Shown: positions 2,316 through 59,666 of the stretch, piece by piece
Layout: each line of letters opens with the position of its first letter
Numbering within the stretch: the first letter of the stretch is position 1
DNA from: Octopus sinensis
Lineage: Eukaryota
Assembly (NCBI RefSeq): GCF_006345805.1
Contig: NC_043002.1
Location: 65,782,001 to 65,846,000 of the forward strand
Length of the DNA stretch: 64,000 nt
Reading direction: 5' to 3'
Notes under the pieces: generated by a model
Databases searched by the model: none
What the model was told of the DNA's origin: nothing
The model's input: only the letters and a program-made list of their open reading frames with translations
Position numbers and translations under genes: made by a program

Positions 2316-2756
2316 ATATTATATTATATTAAATTAGAGACAAAACCACTATTAGGCAAATCAAACAATGAAAGACTTAAGCCAATACATAAATTAATTT
2401 GTATTATTTAAATATGTAACAATTATTAAAAAAATATAATTAATATCCACTACGATTGTTTAAAACTCGCCAAGAAAAATTTTGAAACACCTGATGAATG
2501 ACTGCGACCTAAAAATTTGATGACAGCAGCCAGGAAACGATCGTTGTGGATATTAATTATATTTTTTTAATAATTGTTACATATTTAAATAATATAAATT
2601 AATTTATGTATTGGCTTAAGTCTTTCATTGTTTGATTTGCCTAATAGTGGTTTTGTCTCTAATTTAATATAATATAATATTTTACTATAAAATTGGATTC
2701 AATCCTAAATCTGATTTTTCCCTGTAAGTTTGGATTTATTCCCTAATATTTATTAT

Positions 2757-3833: not shown

Positions 3834-4699
3834 AGGAAAGAAGGAAAAATCACTTTTGGTATTGTTGTACTGGAGGCATTATGCCTGAAGGAAGAATGGT
3901 ATGTTGAGCACTGCGACAACTTCAACATCGGCATTTTTGTATTTTTTTCTTGCTTGTTCGTTTGTTTTTGTCTATTGTGTTCTTGATGATAATAGCTGAC
4001 CAACACCTAAAACAACAATAAATTCTCTCCCTCTTTACGACACATATTTATCCCACGGCTAATTCGATAGAACCGTTGAGTGTATTAGTGAAGGCGAAGG
4101 ACTAACCGTCGACCTCTTGACTGGTTATATAGTGGCGAGTTTCTCGATTTCTTGATTCGCTGAGCCATCGATCTTATAGGCCACCATTAATCAGATCGAG
4201 GGCGGCGTGTTGACAGAATCATCAGCGCGACGGACAAGATGCTTAGTGCTATTTCTTCTGAGTCCAAATATCGCCTAGGTCGACTTTGCCTTACATCCTT
4301 TCAAGGTCAATAAAATAAGTACCATGTGAGCACTGGTATAGTCAACTAGGCTCCGCCTCAAAAATTTCAGGTCTTGTGCATATAATAAAATTATTGTTGT
4401 TTTTGTTGTTGTTGTTAAGGCGGAGAGCTGGCAGATTGGCTTGCACGCCGGGCGAAATGCTCGGCGTTATTTCGTCTGCCGCTACGCTCTGAGTTCAAAT
4501 TCCGCCAGGGTCGACTTTGACTTCCATCCTTTCGGGGTCGATGAAATAAGTTCCAGTTATGCACCGGGGTCGGTATAATCGAAGAAGAAGAAGAAGAAGA
4601 AGGAGGAGGAGGGGGAGGAGGAGGAGGAGGAGGAGGAGGAGGAGGAGGAGGAGGAGGAGAAGAAGGAGAAGAAGAAGAAGAAGAAGAAGAAGAAGAAGA

Positions 4700-4870
4700 T
4701 CTAAAAGTACCTTAGGAATGAGAACCAGGTTCGAAATTTCCCCCAAGACACCTGATGAAGGCTGGAGGGTATATCAGCCGAAACTTTGTGTTAACAACGA
4801 ACAAAATGAGGACAAATATCCGTCAAATGTAAATAATGTACATAATTCCTCATTTCTTAAATATAGAACT
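4700..4870 (+). mobile_element. ~170-bp hammerhead-containing PLE-like element between (AGA)n and (TTA)n tracts
   Basis: Clearly homologous to the reverse complement of 39095-39247; contains gacac-CTGATGA-a-ggctg..cagcc-GAAAC-ttt-gtgtt. Confidence 0.7.
4747..4792 (+). ncRNA. Minimal hammerhead ribozyme motif (stem III palindrome mutated)
   Basis: Stem I gacac/gtgtt, core CTGATGA 4752-4758, perfect stem II ggctg/cagcc, GAAA 4780-4783; reads GAAACTT where the sister copy has GAAACGTT. Confidence 0.65.
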
Positions 4871-4913
4871 CTTATGATTATTATTATTATTATTATTATT
4901 GTTGTTGTTGTTG

Positions 4914-4953
<40 letters not shown>

Positions 4954-4959
4954 CATCAT

Positions 4960-4992
<33 letters not shown>

Positions 4993-5252
4993 CACTACTA
5001 CTACTACTATTACTACTACTATAAAGGCAGCGAGCATGCGTAGTATTTAGAGCGCCTGGCAAAATGTTCGGCGGCATTTCTCCTGGCACATCACGGCTCT
5101 CGTTCAAAACTACGCCGAGGTTAACTTTGCCTTTCGTCCCCTCGGGATCGATAAAAAAAAAAAGATTACCAGTGTAGTACTGAGGTGAATATTACCAACT
5201 TCCTTCTCCCCATAAAACTGCCCGACCATGTGCCAAAATTTAAAAGAATTAA

Positions 5253-6879: not shown

Positions 6880-7715
6880 CTTTTACTCTTTCTTTAATCT
6901 TTGTTTCAGTAATTTATTTCAGAGTACCGGCTTAGCGGTGTTCTAGTGTGTCCACAGTCTTATTGTTAGTCGGACAAATTGACCTCAGGCCGTATTTTAA
7001 GGACAATACTTTGTCTACCCTTTCTATTTTCTTTCACAAACTGCTAAATCACGGAGACATAAGCAAATTAACATAGATCGTATAGCGGTGTGGGATAGAA
7101 GCATAAACACTAATATACACACACATATGCATGTATGCACACACACACACACACGCACGCACACGTACACATACAATCACACAAACACACAAACACATAC
7201 AAACACACAAACACACACACACTCACACACCACACACAAATACACACACACAAATGTACAAACACACCAACACACACACAAACACGAACAAACACACAGA
7301 CAAACACAAACAAAAGCTCACACACACAAACAAATGCACACACACGTACACATACAAACACATACTCACACAAACATACATAACACTCACACACACATAC
7401 ACAAATGTACAAACACACCATCACACACAAATACACAAACACACATGCACACACACACTCACATACACACACACAAACACGAACAAACACACAGACAAAC
7501 ACAAACAAATACACATACACTCGCACACAGACATACACACACAGATACATATACGATGAGCTTCCTCAGAGTTTCTGTCCGCGAAATTCACTCCAAAAGT
7601 ATTGATCGGTCCGGAGTTTAGTAGAAATACACTTCCCACACGGTGTCTCGGAATGGAACTGAGCCCCAAACTCCGTGGTTGCAAAATTAGCTTCTTCCCC
7701 GCACAGCCATGTATG
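6880..7715 (-). mobile_element. Diverged SINE family B with ~450-bp expanded internal CA-rich microsatellite
   Basis: 3' half at 6880-7110, head at 7550-7715, CA-rich tract between them. Confidence 0.7.
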
Positions 7716-7985
7716 AACCTACGTCCAACAAAATGGTGGTCGCTCCGTTTTAACTTCATTCAGTTTATTTAAATCCATCCTTTTTCCCTCATTTTGAAGT
7801 TCAGTAATTTCCAACCTATTCCTCTGATAAGGCACATATTAAAGAAGTGTGTTGTGCTGTTTACTTTAAAACTTTTACATATAGACTTATGGGTGTTCGT
7901 TATTTTGCATATGTATATATATATATATGTATGTATGTGTTTGTGTGTGCGTGTGTATATATATATAATATATATATATATATAC

Positions 7986-8132
7986 GAGTGGCTGTGTGGT
8001 AAGTAGCTTGCTTACAAACCACATGGTTCCGAGTTCAGTCCCACTGCGTGGCACCTTGGGCATTATAGCCTCGGGCCGACCAAAGCTTTCTGAGTGAATT
8101 TGGTCGATAGAAACTGAAAGAAGCCCGTCGTA

Positions 8133-8221
<89 letters not shown>

Positions 8222-8430
8222 TGTGTGTCTGTGTTTGTCCCCCTCCACCACGCAGCATCGCTTGACAACCGATGCTGGTGTGTTTACGTACCGGTTCGGC
8301 AAAAAGAGACCGATCGAATAAGTACTAGGCTTACAAAGAATAAGTGTTAGGGTCGATTTGCTCGACTAAAAGCGGTGCTCCAGCATGGCCGCAGTCAGAT
8401 GACTGAAACAAGTAAAAGAATAAAAGAGTA
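7986..8430 (+). mobile_element. SINE family B
   Basis: Head, internal (TA)n and tail match the 1325-1725 copy. Confidence 0.85.
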
Positions 8431-9164
8431 ATAACGACAAAAATGGCTGCGAAAGTATTAACAACAACGTCCAATGTCCTTTCTATCGTAAATTTCTCTT
8501 CAGACAATATTCTTACTGTCGTAAAATTTTTATTATGTTTCCTTCAATTTCTTTTCTTTTCTTTATTTTACCGAATACATTAAAACAAAGAAATGTATGT
8601 AAATTGTCTGACTATATGGAATAAAGGATTGTTATATAAACAATAAACTAAATTAAAATTGGTTTATTTATTTCTTTAAAATTATTTATTTATCTTACAC
8701 ACAAACAAAATATAACTCAAATCAGGTGTAAACGAAAAAGAATTCAGATTACGATCAATGCTTTCAAGAAATGAAAATTTGGTCTTAGATTTGCGAGTGT
8801 CTGACACATTTCTAATGCGCTTATCGATATCGCTTCATTCATTTTTGTCATTTTGCTTTGGGTTATTTTTCTTTTCTTTGCCAAAATGTGTGCAGTTTAA
8901 TTACGATCAATACGTCTATTCTTCGAAGTGAAATTAAATTGTTTTTCATATTGAAGGTAGTTGATACACATTGCTATCTCTGCAGAAACGTAAAAAAATA
9001 AATAAACGTAAATAAACTAGCACCGGTTGTCAAGAGATGAATATCAGCACGAAAATACTCAGAAACACACACACACACACACACCTACATACACATGTAT
9101 AAGTACTACACACATACATACTTACATACATATATACATATATATACATACGTTCATACATATA

Positions 9165-9303
9165 TAATATTAGGGCCCTGGGATATGTAACGCTGCCTAA
9201 ATACCACTCTTGAGGAATTAGTCTTCTCAAAATCTGAACGGAGAAAGACTACAAATCCAGTCCATCACTGGAACTGTGGAAATTTGTAAAACGTCCCAGA
9301 AGT
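9165..9303 (+). mobile_element. Fragment of RLE-type non-LTR retrotransposon C-terminus
   Basis: Homologous to 14470-14620; preceded by a (CATA)-rich tract. Confidence 0.6.
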
Positions 9304-9614
9304 ACTTATTCTATCGGCCTCATTTACCGAACCGCTAAGTTACGGGGACGTAAACACACCAGCATCGGTTGTGAATTAAACACTGATTTGTCAAAACCCT
9401 TTAATTTCGTCTGCATCACTATTGATTAGTCACCTTTATCTGCTCCTCTGATACAAGCTAAGTTTATTTGCGGGTTTTTCTTAAACACTGAAATTTCTTA
9501 GATCGTTATTTAGAGGTTCATATCACTGATAATTCAAATGATTTCTACGAGTAATCAACAACATCTTACTCAGAGTAAAAGTTTCAGAACTTTTCGCTTC
9601 GAATTATATAAATA

Positions 9615-11600
9615 CTAGCTGAAGGTGACCCGCTCTACGCGCGGGTAAGAGTGTGGTTGTTACTTTCTGTTGCTTCCTTTCAGTAAGAGTGTGGTTGTTA
9701 CTTTCTGTTGCTTCCATTTATAAACAACAGAAGATCTTGAGTAAGTTGAGAAATAAAATATTTAGAAAGATCAATCATAAATATCAGGCAGTGGCAACGG
9801 AAAGGTCTGCTTCAAGGCAGACAGCAAAACGCTAACATTTAAAAGGGACAGACGAACTTGCGAGCTGAATAAAATAATAAAATATTGGAAACCAAAGTTT
9901 GAAGGGATAGAATCTGAGGATAGTAGAGTCACCATGGCTGGCATTTCTTAACGACGGACAGCAACGTATTGACAGTTTAACGGCTGGCGTAAAATTTTGA
10001 ACTTGATGTAAAAGAAAATTCGTAAACACCAAGTTTTGAAGTGATTCTTTCTCACGACAGTAGACTCACCATGGTAAGCATTCAAAATTTCTTTATCATG
10101 GACGGCAACACATTGACGATTAAAAGGCTGGTGCAAAATTTTTAGCTTGATGTAACAGAGAATTCCTAAACACCCGCTCCTTGAAATTTTAATCCCCTTC
10201 CAGCCCCATTTAGACCCCTTTTCACATTTTGGTTAATATAACCCGAATTCATTCGGGTCTACTGGGGCCACATTTTATAAGATGAGGAATTTTGTCCTAG
10301 AGGTGACGCCTTTCATTTGAGGAAAAATATAGTTGTCATGCAAACTTGCCAGCACTTTTAACATAGGTGTGCATATTTTCAGCTGAATCGACCGACTACG
10401 TAATGCACACATTATATATATATATATTTATGTATATATATGTGTGTGTGTGTGTGTGCACGCATTATATATACAAATGTATACAAATGAGATATATATC
10501 TGTATAAATTAAATTAGAGATAAAACCACTAATAGGCAAATCAAACAGTGAAAAACCAAAAACAAAAACATTAAAAAAATATAATATAGAAAATATATCT
10601 TTATATATAAAAGTAAGGTTGTGTGTCTGTCTCCTACGATTTAGATTCCTAACTACTCCCACATTTTGCGGTGCAGTTTAATCAAAACCGGGTATCTTAT
10701 AGTCGTGATTCATATCGAGCCCTTCTGGGTATTAGCGCGCGTCTACGATGAGTCTACGATTTTAAAAATAATTTACCATCATTTTTTCCATTTTAATGCA
10801 TTTTTTCGCTATTATATAAGGGAAGTAACTCTCTAAAAATGTCTACGATGAGTCAACGATTTTAAAATGCATTTTTTTGCTATTTTTTGGCTATAACTCT
10901 CTAAAAATGCTTATATAGTTATTTCCCTTACAAACCCGAGCGACACCGGGCGATACTGCTAGTAAAATATAAAATTGAAAAATTTAAATTATTTAAATTG
11001 AAAATAAAAATTATTAAATTATATTTATAATTTGTTTAAAAATATATATAACTATAAAAAAGTATGAAAAAGTTTAATATACATAAATACAGATATATAC
11101 ACTTTGTATATATACATTATATATACATATTTATTTATAGAACACACACACACACACACACACACATACATTATATATACATATTTATATATAGAACACA
11201 CACACATAAATGAACGCAAGAATATCTGATTCATAATATTTGTTCTCATGCTCGTGTGTTGTTGGTGACAGACAGATACATAAAAGAACGCCGAAGTGAT
11301 GGGAAGGTAGGAAACAGAGTCAGTGAAAAATAGAGGAAATGGCGAGAGTGACAGATACATTAAATAAGGGGAGTGGAACTGTCAAAGTTATAACTGAAGG
11401 GAAGTGAGAGGGTAATGGAGGAAATAGCGTGAGTGAGGAAGATGGCCCCTAGCAACCACACCTTTTAAGATAGGGATTTCTAAGGTAGCCCACGGGCATC
11501 GTCACCTCATTCTACATGTCCCTGTAAAATATGGACGGGATGTAGTGGCATTGAAAGCGATCCAAGCGATAAAAACGCATTTCAGTTTTATATAGAGAGA
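9615..11600 (-). mobile_element. Probable non-autonomous Helitron (second family) with nested insertions
   Basis: Minus-strand 3' end ACCCGCGCGTAGAGCGGGT-9nt-CTAG|T at 9615-9646; minus-strand 5' end A|TCTCTCTATATAAAACTG at 11600; pairing of the two ends is inferred. Confidence 0.55.
10598..10962 (+). mobile_element. Non-autonomous Helitron (same family as 5253-5742)
   Basis: A|TC...CCCGAGCGACACCGGG...CTAG|T; body similar to the 5253 copy. Confidence 0.85.
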
Positions 11601-20710: not shown

Positions 20711-21125
20711 AAAGGCGGCGAGCTGGCAGAATCGTTAACACGCCGGGCGAAATGCATAGCGGTATTTCGTCTGCCGTTACGTTCTGAGTTCAAATTCCGC
20801 CCAGGTCGACTTTGCCTTTCATCCTTTCGGGGTCGATAAATTAAGTACCAGTTACGCTCTGGGGTCGATGTAATCGACTTAATCCGTTTGTCTGTCCTTG
20901 TTTGTCCCCTCTATGTTTAGCCCCTTGTGGGTAATAAAGAAACGGGTATTTCGTCTGCCGTTACGTTCTGAGTTCAAATCTCGCCGAGGTCGACTTTGCT
21001 TTTCATCCTTTCGGGATCGATAAACTAAGTACCAGTTGCGCACTGGGGTGGATGTAATCGACTTAATCCGTTTGTCTGTCCTTGTTTGTCCCCTCTGTGT
21101 TTAGCCCCTTGTGGGTAGTAAAGAA
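20711..21125 (+). mobile_element. SINE family A dimer with ~20-bp TSD
   Basis: TSD AACTATATATGCGTGTGCGT at 20691-20710 and 21126-21145. Confidence 0.9.
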
Positions 21126-21588
21126 AACTATATATGCGTGTGCGTGTGTGCGTGTGTGCGTACGTGCGTGTGTCTGTGTCTGTGTGTGTGTGCAGCCATA
21201 TTTAAACACATACATACTAATACGAAGAAAGAACAAATAATAAGGCAGAAAAAGAAGACATAAATCAAATAAAGAATACAATAGAGAGAGAAAACAGAGC
21301 ATTCGTCATTACTTAGTTATTGCATTTGCTGCCATCTTCAAGTTTTGTCGAATTTTCTGGAATTGTTTTAGTTCATTTTTTGTTTCTTAGTCCAATACAT
21401 ATTTCCATTGTGTGTGAATATTGCTTGTGCAATCACGGCTAGTGGACTGGCAAAGGTCTTGTTTAACTAACTGAGTAAATTCGGACGGCAGAAACAGGAA
21501 TGACAGAACAAAAGAAAATATAAAATGGGGTCAGGAAAATAGAAGAGATTTAGGGTCTGACGACATGAGAAATATACGAGGCATGCAA

Positions 21589-23192: not shown

Positions 23193-23990
23193 AGGAGGCG
23201 AGCTGGTTGAAACGTTAGCACGCCGGGCGAAATGCGTAGCAGTATTTCGTCTGCCGTTACGTTCTGAGTTCAAATTCCGCCGAGGTCGACTTTGCCTTTC
23301 ATCCTTTCGGGGCAGATAAATTAAGTACCAGTTACGCACTGAGGTCGATATAATCGACTTAATCCGTCTGTCCTCGTTTGTCTCCTCTGTATCTAGCCCC
23401 TTGTGGGTAGTAAAGAAATAGGTATTTCGTCTGTCATTATGTTCTGAGTTTAAATTCCGCCGAGGTCAACTTTGCCTTTCAGCCTTTCGGTGTCGATTAA
23501 ATAAGTACCCGTTACGCGCTGGGGGTCGATATAATCGACTTAATCCGTTTATCTGTTCTTCTTTGTCCCCTCTCTGTGTAGCCGCTTGTGGGCAGTAAAG
23601 AAATAAGAAACGTTAGCACGCCGGGCGAAATGCTTAGCGGTATTTCGTCTGCCGCTACGTTCTGAGTTCAAATTCCGCCGAGGTCGACTTTGCCTTTCAT
23701 CCTTTCGGGGTCGATTAAATAAGTATCAGTTACATACTGGGGGTCGATATAATCGACTCAATCCGTTTGTCTGTCCTTGTTTGTCCGCTCTGTGTTTAGA
23801 CCCTTGTGGGTAATAAAGAAATAGGTATTTCGTCTGCCGTTCGTTCTGAGTTCAAATTCCGCCGAGGTCGACTTTGCCTTTCATCCTCTCGAGGTCGATA
23901 AATTAAGTACCACTTGCGTACTGGAGTCGATCTAATTGACTGGCCCCTCTCCAAAAAATGTTGGGCATTGTGCCTAGAGTAGAAAAGAAC
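23193..23990 (+). mobile_element. SINE family A tetramer
   Basis: Four head-to-tail bodies with junctions aaagaaata|ggtatttcg and aaagaaata|agaaacgttagc. Confidence 0.9.
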
Positions 23991-26334: not shown

Positions 26335-26950
26335 TAAGGTAGCGAGGTTTACACGCCGGGCGAAATGCTAGGCGATATTTCGTCTGTCTTTACGTTCTGG
26401 GTTCAAATTCCGCCAAGGTTAATTTTGTCTTATGTCGTTTCTGGGTCGATAAATTAAGCACCAGTTGCGTACTGGGGTCGATCTAATCGACTGGCCCCCT
26501 CATCTAAAATTTGGGGCCTTATGCCTAGAGTAGCAAAGAAAAAGAATCGTTAACACGCCCGATGAAGTGCTTAGAGATATTTCGTCTGTCTTTACGTTCT
26601 GAGTTCAAATTCCGCCGATGTCGGCTTTGCCTTTTATCGTTTCTCTGTCGATAAATTAAGTACCAATTGTGTACTGGGGGTCGATCTAATCGATGCCTCC
26701 CTCCCCCAAAATTTTGGGCCTTGTGCCTTGATTAGAAAAGAAAAAGAGTCGTTAACACGCCGGACAAAGTGTTTAGAGATATTTCGTCCGTCTTTATGTT
26801 CTGAGTTCAAATTCCGCCGATGTCGGCTTTACCTTTTATCGTTTCTGGGTCGATAAAATAAGTACCAGTTGAGTACTGCGATCGATGTATTCGTCTCACC
26901 CAACCCCTGACCCGAAATTGCTGGCCTTGTACCAAAATTTGAAACCATTA
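26335..26950 (+). mobile_element. Tandem trimer of SINE family A (tail-2 type)
   Basis: Three ~200-bp diverged units. Confidence 0.8.
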
Positions 26951-30809: not shown

Positions 30810-31322
30810 TGAGCAACTGGTACTGAATGTATCGATGCCGAAAGGATAAAAGGCAAAGTCGACCTTGGCGGAATTTGAACTCAGAACGTAAAGACAGACA
30901 AAATACCTATTTCTTTACTACCCACAAGGGGCTAAACATAGAGTGGACAAACAAGGACAGACAAACGGATTAAGTCGATTACATCGACCCCAGTGCGTAA
31001 CTGGTACTTAATTTATCGACCCCGAAAGGATGAAGGGCAAAGTCGACCTCGGCAGAATTTGAACTCAGAACGTAGCGGCAGACGAAATACCTATTTCTTT
31101 ATTACCCACAAGGGGATAAACATAGAGGAGACAAACATGGACAGACATAGGTATTAAGTCGATTATATCGACCCCAGTGCTTAACTGGTACTTAATTTAT
31201 CGACCCCGAAAGGATGAAAGGCAAAGTCGACCTCGGCGGAATTTGAACTCACAACGTAACGGCAGACTAAATACCGCTAAGCATTTCGCCCAGCGTGATA
31301 ACGTTTCTACCAGCTCACCGCT
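30810..31322 (-). mobile_element. SINE family A trimer
   Basis: Reverse complement of the family A body x3, head at ~31280-31322. Confidence 0.85.
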
Positions 31323-39094: not shown

Positions 39095-39247
39095 TTAGTA
39101 CATTATTTACATTATTTACATTTGACGGTTATTTGTCCTCATCTTGTTTGTTGTTAATACAACGTTTCGGCTGATATACCCACCAGCCTTCATCAGGTGT
39201 TTTGTGGAAATTTCGAACTTGATTCTCATTCGTAAGGTATTTTTCGA
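39095..39247 (-). mobile_element. Hammerhead-containing PLE-like element (same family as 4700-4870)
   Basis: Reverse complement matches 4700-4845; abuts (TTA/TTG)n. Confidence 0.7.
39156..39201 (-). ncRNA. Minimal hammerhead ribozyme motif, intact core
   Basis: aacac-CTGATGA-a-ggctg-gtgggtatat-cagcc-GAAACGT-t-gtatt. Confidence 0.7.
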
Positions 39248-39278
39248 TGTTATCATTATTATTATTATTATTATTATT

Positions 39279-39326
<48 letters not shown>

Positions 39327-39380
39327 ATTGTTGTTATTATTATTATTATTATCATTATTATTATTATTATTATTATTATT

Positions 39381-39934
39381 GAGTGAGAGAGCAGTGCATG
39401 CCATCAAAGTGACACTGGGGTAAAATATACGAAGCCCAGTATACCTATCATGGCTACCCGTCTGATAAGGGTACACCAGGCACATGCATCACAACCATAT
39501 GTGCGCGACATGGTGATCTCATATCAAGATAAATAGCGCATGGCCTTGCAGGTGGGGCCCAGTTACAATTGTCTTCTGGTCGAGTAGCCCATCCCGCTCA
39601 AAAGGTCCCTGAATAAGGATTGTTTAAGGATGTTGAACGAAACACCCATGTTTCCAAAGGTGAATTATCCAAACCTCTAAGAATTCCTTTCAACACACGG
39701 CTATAATGCTCTCCCACTACTTCTGCTCGTGATTAGAGATGCACATATCGTCAGCCACAAAGGGAAATGGTCAACTGGTTAAGCTCAAACAACTAACAAG
39801 CAAATCAGTGGTATTGAGTAGACTATTTGCTGTAGCCCATCTTTTATACCAAGACAAAACAATGTACATGATAACACTTCCAATCAGTTTAGCTCAGAAG
39901 GAATGAGAGCCACTGTCTAGTACTGCATCAGGCC

Positions 39935-39937
<3 letters not shown>
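39381..39937. mobile_element. Unclassified ~555-bp element inserted in (TTA)n
   Basis: Complex sequence bounded sharply on both sides by (TTA)n runs; no ORF or TIR recognised. Confidence 0.45.
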
Positions 39938-39986
<49 letters not shown>

Positions 39987-51094: not shown

Positions 51095-51700
51095 AAGCTG
51101 GCAGAACTGTTAGCACTCCGGCGAGCTGGCTGAAACGTTTGCACGCCGGGCGAAATGCTTAGCGGAATTTCGTCCGCTGTTACGTTCTGAGTTCAAATTC
51201 CACCGACGTCGACTTTGCCTTTCATCCATTTGGGGTCGATTAAATAAGTACCAGTTACGCACTGGGGTTGATGTAATCGGCTTAATCCGTGTGTCTGTCC
51301 TTGTTTGTCCCCTCTGTGTTCAGCCCCTTGTGGGAAGTAAAGAAATAGGCATTTCGTCTGCGGCTACGTTCTGAGTTCAAATTCCGCCGAGGTCGACTTT
51401 GCCTTTCATCCTTTCAGGGTCGATTAAATAAGTACCAGTTACGCACTGGGGTCGATATAATCGGCTTAATCCGTTTGTCTGTCCTTGTTTGTCCCTTCTG
51501 TGTGTAGCCCCTTGTGAGCAGTAAAGAAATAAGAACTGTTAGCACTCCGGACGAAATGCCGCTAAGTATTTAGTTCTGAGTTCAAACGCCGCTGGGGTCT
51601 ACTTTGCTTTTCATCCTTTCGGAATTGATAAAATAAGTACCAGTTGTGTGATGGAGTCGATATTATTGGCTTACTCGCACTTCTTACCCTGGTACCAAAG
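51095..51700 (+). mobile_element. SINE A dimer (51120-51531) inserted inside the head of an older SINE A
   Basis: TSD AGAACTGTTAGCACTCC at 51103-51119 and 51532-51548. Confidence 0.85.
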
Positions 51701-58287: not shown

Positions 58288-58869
58288 TATTTTTCTACTC
58301 TAGGCACACGGCCCGAAATCGTGGGGGAGGGGCCACTCGATTAGATCAACCCCAGTACGCAACTGGTACTTAATTTGTCGACCCTGAAAGGATGAAAGGC
58401 AAAGTCGACCTCGGTGGAATTTGAACTCAGAACGTAAAAACAAACGAAATACTTATTTCTTTATTGCCCACAAGGGGCTAAACATAGAGGGAACAAACAA
58501 GTACAGGCAAATGGATTAAGTCGATTACATCGATCCCAGTACGTCACTGGTACTTAATTTATTGACCCCGAAAGGATGAAAGGTAAAGTCGACCTCGGCG
58601 AAATTTGAACTCAGAACGCAGCGGCAGATGAAATACCTATTTCTTTACTACCCACAAGGGGCTACACACAGAGAGGACAAACAAGGCAGACAAACGGATT
58701 AAGTCGATTATATCGACCCCGGTGCGTAACTGGTACTTATTTAATCGACCCCGAAAGGATGAAAGGCAAAGTCGGCATCGGCGGAATCTGAACTCAGAAC
58801 GTAGCGGCAGACGAAATACCGCTAAGCATTTTGCCTGGCGTGCTAACGTTTCTGCCAGCTCGCCGCCTT
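58288..58869 (-). mobile_element. SINE family A trimer
   Basis: Reverse-complement bodies x3, head at ~58820-58869. Confidence 0.88.
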
Positions 58870-58880
58870 ATGAGTGTTTC

Positions 58881-59480
58881 AATATTAAATATCCAATTTC
58901 CACCGAGGTCGACTTTGCCTTTCATCCTTTCGGGGTCGATAAATTAAGTACCAGTTGCGTACTGTAGTCGATCTAATCGATTGACACACACCCTTCCCCA
59001 AAATTTCGGCCCTTGTGCCTAGAGTGGAAAAGAATATTAAATATCTAATTTCCGCCGAGGTCGACTTTGCCTTTCATCCTTTTGGGGGTTGATAATTTAA
59101 GTACCAGTTGCGTACTGGAGTTGATCTAATCGATTCTCCCCCTCCACAAAAATTTCGTGCTTTGTGACTAGAATAGAAAAGGATATTAAATATCCAATTT
59201 CCGCCGAGGTCGACTTTGCCTTTCATCCTTTTGGGACAAATTAAGTACGAGTTGCGTACTGGGGTCGATCTAATCGATTGGCCCCCTCCCCCAAAATTTC
59301 GGGCCGTGTGCCTAGAGTAGAAAAGAATATTAAATATCCAGTTTCCGCCGAGGTCGACTTTGCCTTTCATCCTTTTGGGGTCGACAAATTAAGTACCAGT
59401 TGCGTCCTGTGGTCGATCTAATCTATTGCCCACCCCCCGCTCCACCAAAACTTTTCGCCCGTGTGCCAAGAGTAGAAAAG
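58881..59480 (+). repeat. Tandem array of four ~150-bp headless SINE A 3' units
   Basis: Each unit begins atattaaatatcc/taatttccgccgaggtcgac and ends ...agtagaaaag. Confidence 0.9.
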
Positions 59481-59666
59481 ACCAGGCTAGCAGTATTTTG
59501 TATATGAGTAAAGAGCTACGTGTATTCTTGTGACAGGGGCCGAGGTTATATTTCATAACCACTCTATATTGTAAATCCGTGGTTGCACTTCAGTCAACCT
59601 GATTTTTATACCGAGTGATGTACAAGACATGGTGATAATAACCATTATTCCATATTTTCCCGTTAT

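Follow-up and report, generated by a model that had tools for sequence, protein, structure and literature searches.

The window analysed here is a 64,000-nt stretch of the Octopus sinensis genome (NC_043002.1, positions 65,782,001 to 65,846,000), and it holds two copies of a hammerhead-bearing repeat in opposite orientations (Table 1). A previous sequence-only reading of this DNA had proposed that the two stretches are the same element. This is correct, as positions 4700-4846 on the plus strand and 39247-39102 on the minus strand are 89.8% identical over 147 nt (pairwise alignment, E 3e-52), and the exact 33-nt core pattern has 3,882 matches in the 2.7-Gb genome (reversed control, 0). A scan of the whole window for generic hammerhead cores returned two motifs, which are exactly those of the plus and minus copies. 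Both copies are almost certainly 5′-truncated 3′ ends of an autonomous Penelope/Poseidon-type element (PLE), each made of part of the pseudo-LTR (pLTR) plus the start of the ORF.

Table 1. Features of the two element copies and their surroundings in the window
Feature	Position	Strand	Basis or remark
(GAA/GGA)n tract	4581..4698	+	TRF; at the position of the element's internal (AAT/AAC)n tract; either a drifted internal tract or a host tract
5′-truncated, tail-bearing 3′ end assigned to a Penelope/Poseidon-type element	4699..4870	+	family consensus (about 91% identity); tblastn
ATG opening the element's 840-codon ORF, 34 nt ahead of the ribozyme core	4718..4720	+	consensus ORF open from this ATG
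Minimal type I hammerhead	4747..4792	+	pattern scan, consensus; helix III palindrome broken at 4785
Stem I	4747-4751/4788-4792	+	
CUGAUGA	4752-4758	+	
Bulged A	4759	+	
Stem II	4760-4764/4775-4779	+	
GAAA	4780-4783	+	
Predicted cut	between 4787 and 4788	+	
Penelope 'tail' (30-35 nt between two fixed 3′ ends)	4841..4870	+	runs on into the ORF in full-length copies
(ATT)/(GTT)/(TAC) tract 3′ of the plus copy	4872..5021	+	TRF; host sequence ahead of an unrelated short repeat
Second copy, short (tail-less) 3′ end	39098..39249	-	family consensus (93.5% identity)
Minimal type I hammerhead	39156..39201	-	ACGU palindrome intact; third stem I pair broken by an A
Core	39196-39190	-	
GAAA	39168-39165	-	
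Predicted cut	between 39161 and 39160	-	
Element's (AAT)/(AAC) tract, very probably internal	39250..39380	-	TRF; place and unit as in 58 of 64 copies
Unrelated ~560-bp repeat between two (AAT)n tracts (second tract 39937-39986)	39381..39936	-	occupies the expected place of the tRNA-like head

As had been read from the letters, both copies carry ACAC-CUGAUGA-A-GGCUG..CAGCC-GAAAC, and the minus copy retains the palindrome GAAACGUU where the plus copy reads GAAACUUU. The loop between the stem II arms, which the same reading called variable, is 10 nt long in both copies and differs at only one of these positions. The palindromic positions 15.2-16.2 are ACGU in the consensus as well as in the minus copy, and helix III could form only in a dimer. 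The CUGANGA and GAAA core, the UH at the cleavage site and the type I topology are all present, as are the extra nucleotide between A9 and G10.1 and the G10.1-C11.1 pair. These features, together with the short helix I, the location in a pLTR and the thousands of lone copies in truncated elements, are those of the min-HHR of metazoan PLEs described by Cervera and de la Pena 2014 (PMC4209133). The ribozyme itself is no different from the min-HHR, and neither promoter boxes nor an internal microsatellite are mentioned in the part of that paper available to us. Truncated Penelope ends that carry minimal hammerheads are an ordinary, amply documented finding, and a hammerhead inside the first codons of an ORF is a known arrangement.

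The proposal of a minimal type I hammerhead of the PLE kind also stands, as does its separation from the TA-associated family. Another hammerhead repeat, at window 2330-2670, lies between TA tracts, has mirror-image arms and a longer palindrome after GAAA, and is probably the TA-associated family of the earlier reading. Three other loci (L019, L110 and L136) carry yet another family of minimal hammerheads, in which the stem II loop is very short and the flanks are unrelated. Rfam identified neither a hammerhead nor a tRNA among the window matches listed (150 of 194), on seven loci, or, at E<=10, on 361 nt taken from another copy. Unconstrained folding of a dimer did not return the active fold, and cleavage is predicted to require a dimer or the help of a protein.

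In a sample of 108 copies picked by anchors outside the ribozyme, 18 fit the exact core pattern and the hammerhead is fully intact in 14. Taken with the 3,882 exact matches, this fraction gives roughly 20,000 copies genome-wide, the sister subfamily described below included; a genome search using a gapped pattern gave 3,620 matches. At non-CpG positions, divergence over the 108 copies is 4.0% in the core, 4.7% in stem II, 6.7% in the loop and 4.4% outside the ribozyme, with CpG sites diverging at 15-21%. The core is therefore nominally more conserved than the loop (p 0.006), as the sequence-only reading would have it, but it is no different from ordinary element sequence, and from this we conclude that the copies decay neutrally. 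Selection on the hammerhead is visible only between families or in the master lineage, where coding constraint overlaps the signal. The sole core site with a common variant is the free position 7 (A in 18 of 105 copies), and three families differ in the loop and distal stem I while stem II and the remaining core are unchanged. A search for compensatory changes in stem II gave 27 matches, mostly decayed copies, and led to the third of these families. In foreign PLE loci this core recurs with a wide variety of paired stems, in a scan that itself required pairing. Many copies, among 210 deletion-bearing places, have internal deletions of 8-16 nt that often remove the stem II hairpin at short direct repeats.

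The parent of these copies can be reconstructed. Consensus building in windows yields a unit of 2,648 nt that contains a single 840-aa ORF (RT plus GIY-YIG), and the compact family of about 170 bp that had been proposed gives way to a collection of 3′ ends of this autonomous element of about 2.65 kb. Since the consensus ATG falls at window position 4718, the 170 bp consist largely of the ORF's initial ~50 codons, which recur at the 3′ end within the pLTR; the plus copy matches residues 1-58 of the 840-aa ORF (tblastn, E 4e-13). Proceeding upstream from the copies, one meets the triplet tract, a 76-nt GC-richer segment, the C-terminal GIY-YIG coding part and then the RT, in register, and downstream lies the N-terminal part of the same ORF. 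The unit can be written as ORF stop, tRNA-like head, internal (AAT/AAC)n tract and ORF start containing the hammerhead. Two native copies (L207 and L218) can be read for 388-390 codons from the element's ATG. We considered whether splicing within the pLTR might connect the ORF to an ATG further upstream, and rejected this because the frames do not fit and the ORF is open without an intron.

Pfam gave nothing above cut-off on three native fragments and a fourth; RVT_1 reached E 1.3e-4 on a native fragment, which is below the cut-off, and exceeded it on all three homologues. A PDB search returned weak RT matches only, and the endonuclease falls in Atlas GIY-YIG clusters at 0.97. The RT-EN linker in native pieces L116 and L118 has one Cys before the EN motif and no cysteine cluster. 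As a cysteine-rich linker marks Neptune and Nematis, unlike Penelope/Poseidon (PMC3846280, PMC8557442), this points to the Penelope/Poseidon clade of EN+ PLEs, an assignment made by motifs rather than by an RT tree. A pLTR with the ORF start, an optional tail and an inverted 5′-truncated arm are all present in the element. Homologues that are 56-57% identical still show the ribozyme's footprint at the peptide level, TPD[DE]G...[PS]KR, and the same search returned barnacle proteins among the relatives. Scans of metagenome contigs (with a single protein query) and of viral contigs gave no relatives. A 2-kb contig of a Buchnera metagenome-assembled genome (L520, DATLVK010000035.1) encodes a PLE protein and is probably contaminating host DNA.

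How the copies are built was studied in 92 copies anchored 3′ of the ribozyme, for which the first 93 places on one chromosome were fetched. Their 3′ ends are of two kinds: a short end in 56 copies and, about 35 nt further on, a tail end in 32, with four unclear. The plus window copy has the tail and the minus window copy does not. An inverted piece of the element lies within 600 nt upstream in 52 of the 92, and 38 of 42 two-armed insertions pair one short end with one tail end. This pairing agrees with the use of two internal RT start sites, as demonstrated for the Poseidon element of Anolis (PMC11167929).

We propose that the element's protein would nick AT-rich DNA and that reverse transcription would start inside the uncut RNA at either of two sites downstream of the ribozyme, yielding the short end or the tail end. 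Two such cDNAs would often join head to head. Synthesis would reach the 5′ end of the RNA at the head or stop earlier, and both window copies may be such early stops or may have been cut off in the tract. The hammerhead would be dispensable for insertion, and dead or lone in most copies; for the Anolis element, cleavage needs protein and insertion does not need cleavage (PMC11167929). The idea that 5′ ends are set by hammerhead cleavage was rejected: only 5 of the 92 copies begin within 4 nt of the predicted cut, with no clear hot spot, and two of these five are internal deletions with element sequence continuing upstream.

Much of this anatomy recurs in the Anolis Poseidon element PAc (Frangieh et al. 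2024, PMC11167929) and in rotifer Penelope (PMC3846280), as far as the available parts of these reports describe them. Shared features include an ORF of about 840 aa with RT and C-terminal GIY-YIG, an ORF start in the pLTR, a ribozyme overlapping coding sequence, two 3′ ends bounding a tail of 30-40 nt, inverted 5′-truncated arms, AT-rich targets, an uncut RNA template and no reads ending at the cut site. Unlike PAc and rotifer Penelope, the octopus element has its whole core downstream of the ATG, and a pLTR with an A/B-box head and an expanding (AAT)n tract. The ribozyme, tail and inverted arms are known PLE features, and it would be unusual for an autonomous PLE to carry a tRNA-like head with A and B boxes in its pLTR.

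This head starts 23 nt past the ORF stop in ORF-bearing copies of two subfamilies. Judged by the box consensus, it carries an A box followed after 45 nt by a B box; the spacing is 55 nt in the third family. Both boxes are matched in all three related families at this 45-55 nt spacing, and only one in 20,000 shuffles of the unit gives such a pair. As the three families are kin, however, the shared boxes are not independent evidence. In 81 foreign PLE loci, none of 36 hammerheads has an A/B box pair within 300 nt, and a relaxed search of 20 foreign hammerhead loci found no B box. The head has no tRNA match in Rfam, is called by ARAGORN only at relaxed settings and offers no convincing cloverleaf, and a genome search for its parent tRNA returned only six element copies. 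A further candidate, in which the N-terminal peptides of crustacean-like homologues would reflect the B box, was set aside because the required codons do not fit (judged by eye).

The 5′ ends of copies bear on the function of this head. Among 60 head-bearing copies, 31 stop within a 26-nt window at its 5′ edge, and the rate of 5′ ends per 100 nt at risk is 4.2 at this edge, against 0.17 over the preceding 232 nt and 0.38 within the head itself (p 4e-19). Fifteen of the 60 extend past this edge to the ORF side. Of 13 sister-subfamily copies, five end within 11 nt of the head start and none in the next 94 nt, while seven run on into the ORF and one ends inside the head. Nine of 28 ORF-start-bearing stretches have upstream element sequence, three of them beginning at the head, and none of the 28 was shown to be a full-length copy. 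Probably the best explanation of the whole is an autonomous Penelope/Poseidon-type element that RNA polymerase III would transcribe from an internal promoter in the head. For the narrower claim that the head is a working polymerase III promoter, the sequence evidence inclines us modestly in its favour. An uncapped polymerase III RNA would need another translation route, for example a separate polymerase II read-through.

It is important to weigh the possibility that the head is not a working promoter. Transcripts would then be made by polymerase II, from the pLTR or by read-through from the host, and a conserved hairpin at the edge would stop reverse transcription or allow cDNA ends to anneal. 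Such a hairpin exists (about -9.5 kcal/mol) and covers the same 24 nt as the hot spot of 5′ ends; its 4-bp inner stem is kept in three families, and its outer stem has one compensatory change between two of them. Moreover, the 31 edge junctions comprise seven fold-backs at the palindrome, 14 joined to an inverted arm elsewhere and 10 joined to unrelated DNA, so that an inverted arm is present at 21. Palindromes also occur at pLTR 5′ ends in rotifer Penelope (PMC3846280), and a LINE-like internal promoter is described for the Penelope of D. virilis (PMC2377424). However, a stall would be expected at the 3′ base of the hairpin, whereas most ends lie at or past its loop, and 10 of the 31 junctions are with unrelated DNA. 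Simple fold-back copying would not give the different 3′ ends seen in 38 of 42 arm pairs, and the B box and the missing TTTT are left unexplained. We judge this reading unlikely, although it deserves to be taken seriously.

A run of four T is the usual polymerase III stop (PMC3141230), and the sense strand of the 2,648-nt consensus unit contains none. Within the ORF the count is 0 against 2.9 expected from codon shuffles (P 0.027, T being one of four bases tested). Native copies have 16 TTTT in 73,258 nt, some copies having been fetched twice, and 17 native in-frame stretches of the lineage have 7 where 20.8 are expected. For comparison, the counts are 90 against 91 in 28 other ORF stretches of the genome and 397 against 365 in 42 foreign PLE stretches. 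Nevertheless, the avoidance is not specific, because GGGG is also absent from the unit and two of the closest foreign PLE relatives, at 46-48% identity, are likewise poor in T runs (L440, 0 in 1,993 nt of ORF; L441, 1 in 1,783 nt), and A/B boxes were not found in L440. Sequencing entries that contain part of the stretch number 20, from 10 studies, and none of those listed is RNA. Three RNA-seq runs, which are ordinary cDNA libraries of which about 6% was read and which possibly come from another species, gave 6,886-10,115 matched reads, equally on both orientations, with 70-74% running into unlike flanks. They showed no common start or end of molecules, and none at the predicted hammerhead cut. 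These reads look like copies carried inside host transcripts, and they neither support nor exclude a discrete element RNA.

Two relatives of the family help to place the head. The sister subfamily (L348-L376) is about 85% identical in the ORF, keeps the head and ribozyme, lacks the microsatellite and has an insertion of 27-30 nt after the ATG. The third family (L404-L433, for example G000:C11057:27450-27720) is a 307-nt ORF-less unit with head and hammerhead and no tract. In 22 of its 30 loci the first codons of the ORF are joined directly to the stop region, the query having included this junction. Its copies are 70-78% alike to the query copy, and the 30 loci contain no array of at least two full units and at most about 1.3 units per locus. 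This family looks like an older deletion derivative.

A second alternative is that the short copies belong to a tRNA-headed SINE in its own right, which would rely on Penelope enzymes with the autonomous element as no more than its helper. Most copies are indeed short and start at the head, and schistosomes have tRNA-headed hammerhead SINEs (PMC6765202, PMC2770079). Yet the position of the head just past the ORF stop, in ORF-bearing copies of two subfamilies, is not that of a separate unit, nor is the extension of a quarter of head-bearing copies into the ORF side. Furthermore, when loci are anchored on the head, the ribozyme part is reached within 900 nt in 22 of 30, and six of the other eight have element sequence on the other side. 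The tRNA-derived SINEs are recognized by 5′ A and B boxes at tRNA-like spacing, which this head has, and by being separate non-autonomous units, whereas here the head lies inside an autonomous one. We therefore regard a separate SINE as improbable, and it would merge with our preferred reading of the head as part of the element if the element's own pLTR yields short head-initiated RNAs.

Several known systems resemble parts of this arrangement. The schistosome Sm-alpha and Sj-alpha repeats (PMC6765202, PMC2770079) also place a tRNA-derived polymerase III promoter beside a type I hammerhead at high copy number. As described in the available parts of these papers, they are non-autonomous and have no known parent, whereas here a promoter-like head and ribozyme lie within a protein-coding PLE. 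The 307-nt unit of the third family resembles Sm-alpha and would show a route from PLEs to such elements. Animal non-LTR retrozymes (PMC7229834; bioRxiv 10.64898/2026.07.22.740005) likewise originate from PLE pLTRs, and the third family shares with them an ORF-less unit with a hammerhead. Unlike their ORF-less tandem hammerhead units, as far as these sources go, the family studied here is dispersed and coding, with an autonomous parent; the words tRNA and promoter are missing from the main text of the bioRxiv preprint. Polymerase III-type sequence inside a retroelement terminal repeat is also found in Cassandra, Helenus and Ajax (PMC10886601), which are non-autonomous LTR elements, and Penelope goes unmentioned in the accessible part of that paper. 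The promoters known from PLEs to date, in the available portions of the reports, are polymerase II-like (PMC2377424, PMC3846280). In the open literature we found no description of a polymerase III or tRNA-derived promoter in PLEs, with Repbase, Dfam, subscription journals and preprint supplements outside this search.

A more far-reaching scenario can be entertained only tentatively. An autonomous Penelope lineage might have acquired, within its terminal repeat, a polymerase III promoter of the tRNA type, might transcribe its whole 2.65-kb template RNA with polymerase III, might purge T-run terminators from its ORF, and might have spawned thousands of SINE-like short copies plus, by deletion of the ORF, the 307-nt hammerhead element. 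If true, polymerase III would be driving a protein-coding retrotransposon, and a way in which Penelope elements give rise to retrozymes and tRNA-headed ribozyme SINEs would be documented. An autonomous PLE with a tRNA-like head, a sister subfamily free of the microsatellite and an older derivative that keeps this head but has no ORF occur together in one genome. Both the transcription of PLEs and the origin of retrozymes and tRNA-headed ribozyme SINEs thereby become addressable with short constructs.

The microsatellites beside the copies require a different explanation from the one originally offered, which was a target preference for trinucleotide repeats. Both window copies do abut triplet tracts, as stated at the outset; the plus copy does so on both sides (4581-4699 and 4872-5021), and the minus copy on its 5′ side only (39250-39380). 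However, a triplet tract stands at the start of the 170-bp part in 62 of the 64 copies that reach it (AAT in 47, AAC in 11), and further element sequence in the same orientation lies beyond it in 60 of 92 copies. An AGA-type tract at the place of the one beside the plus copy was seen in one of 64 other copies (L263, between head and body). In the sister subfamily a short, non-repetitive A-rich linker replaces the tract, and likewise in the older third family. The 5′ tract, with high confidence, is internal to the element. Because it is enclosed by element sequence and missing from both relatives, we view it as cargo that grew inside one subfamily.

On the 3′ side, a triplet tract is present in the flank of 5 of 88 copies, compared with 10 of 874 places in the local background (p 0.008) and 40 of 1,066 in the window background, and the preference there is at most a weak AT/ATT bias. 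The claimed target preference is thus not supported. A compact non-coding ribozyme family that prefers trinucleotide microsatellites would account for the tracts beside both window copies and for the local 3′ excess, yet it is very improbable given that 83 of 88 3′ flanks have no triplet tract, that their rate is near the window background, that the 5′ tract is enclosed by element sequence and missing from the sister subfamily and the older relative, and that the sequence is coding.

The tract has consequences of its own. The ~560-bp repeat that adjoins the minus copy has fixed ends and sits in (AAT)n tracts, including the internal tract of this element. At the fetched loci, AAT/AAC repeats follow 31 of 32 of its 3′ ends and precede 18 of 20 of its 5′ ends. 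A retroelement thus seeds thousands of (AAT)n tracts that are landing sites for another repeat. Elsewhere in the window, TRF reports tandem arrays of a 184-218 nt unit at 20761-21126, 23421-23823, 26374-26878, 30815-31275, 51167-51531 and 58337-59481.
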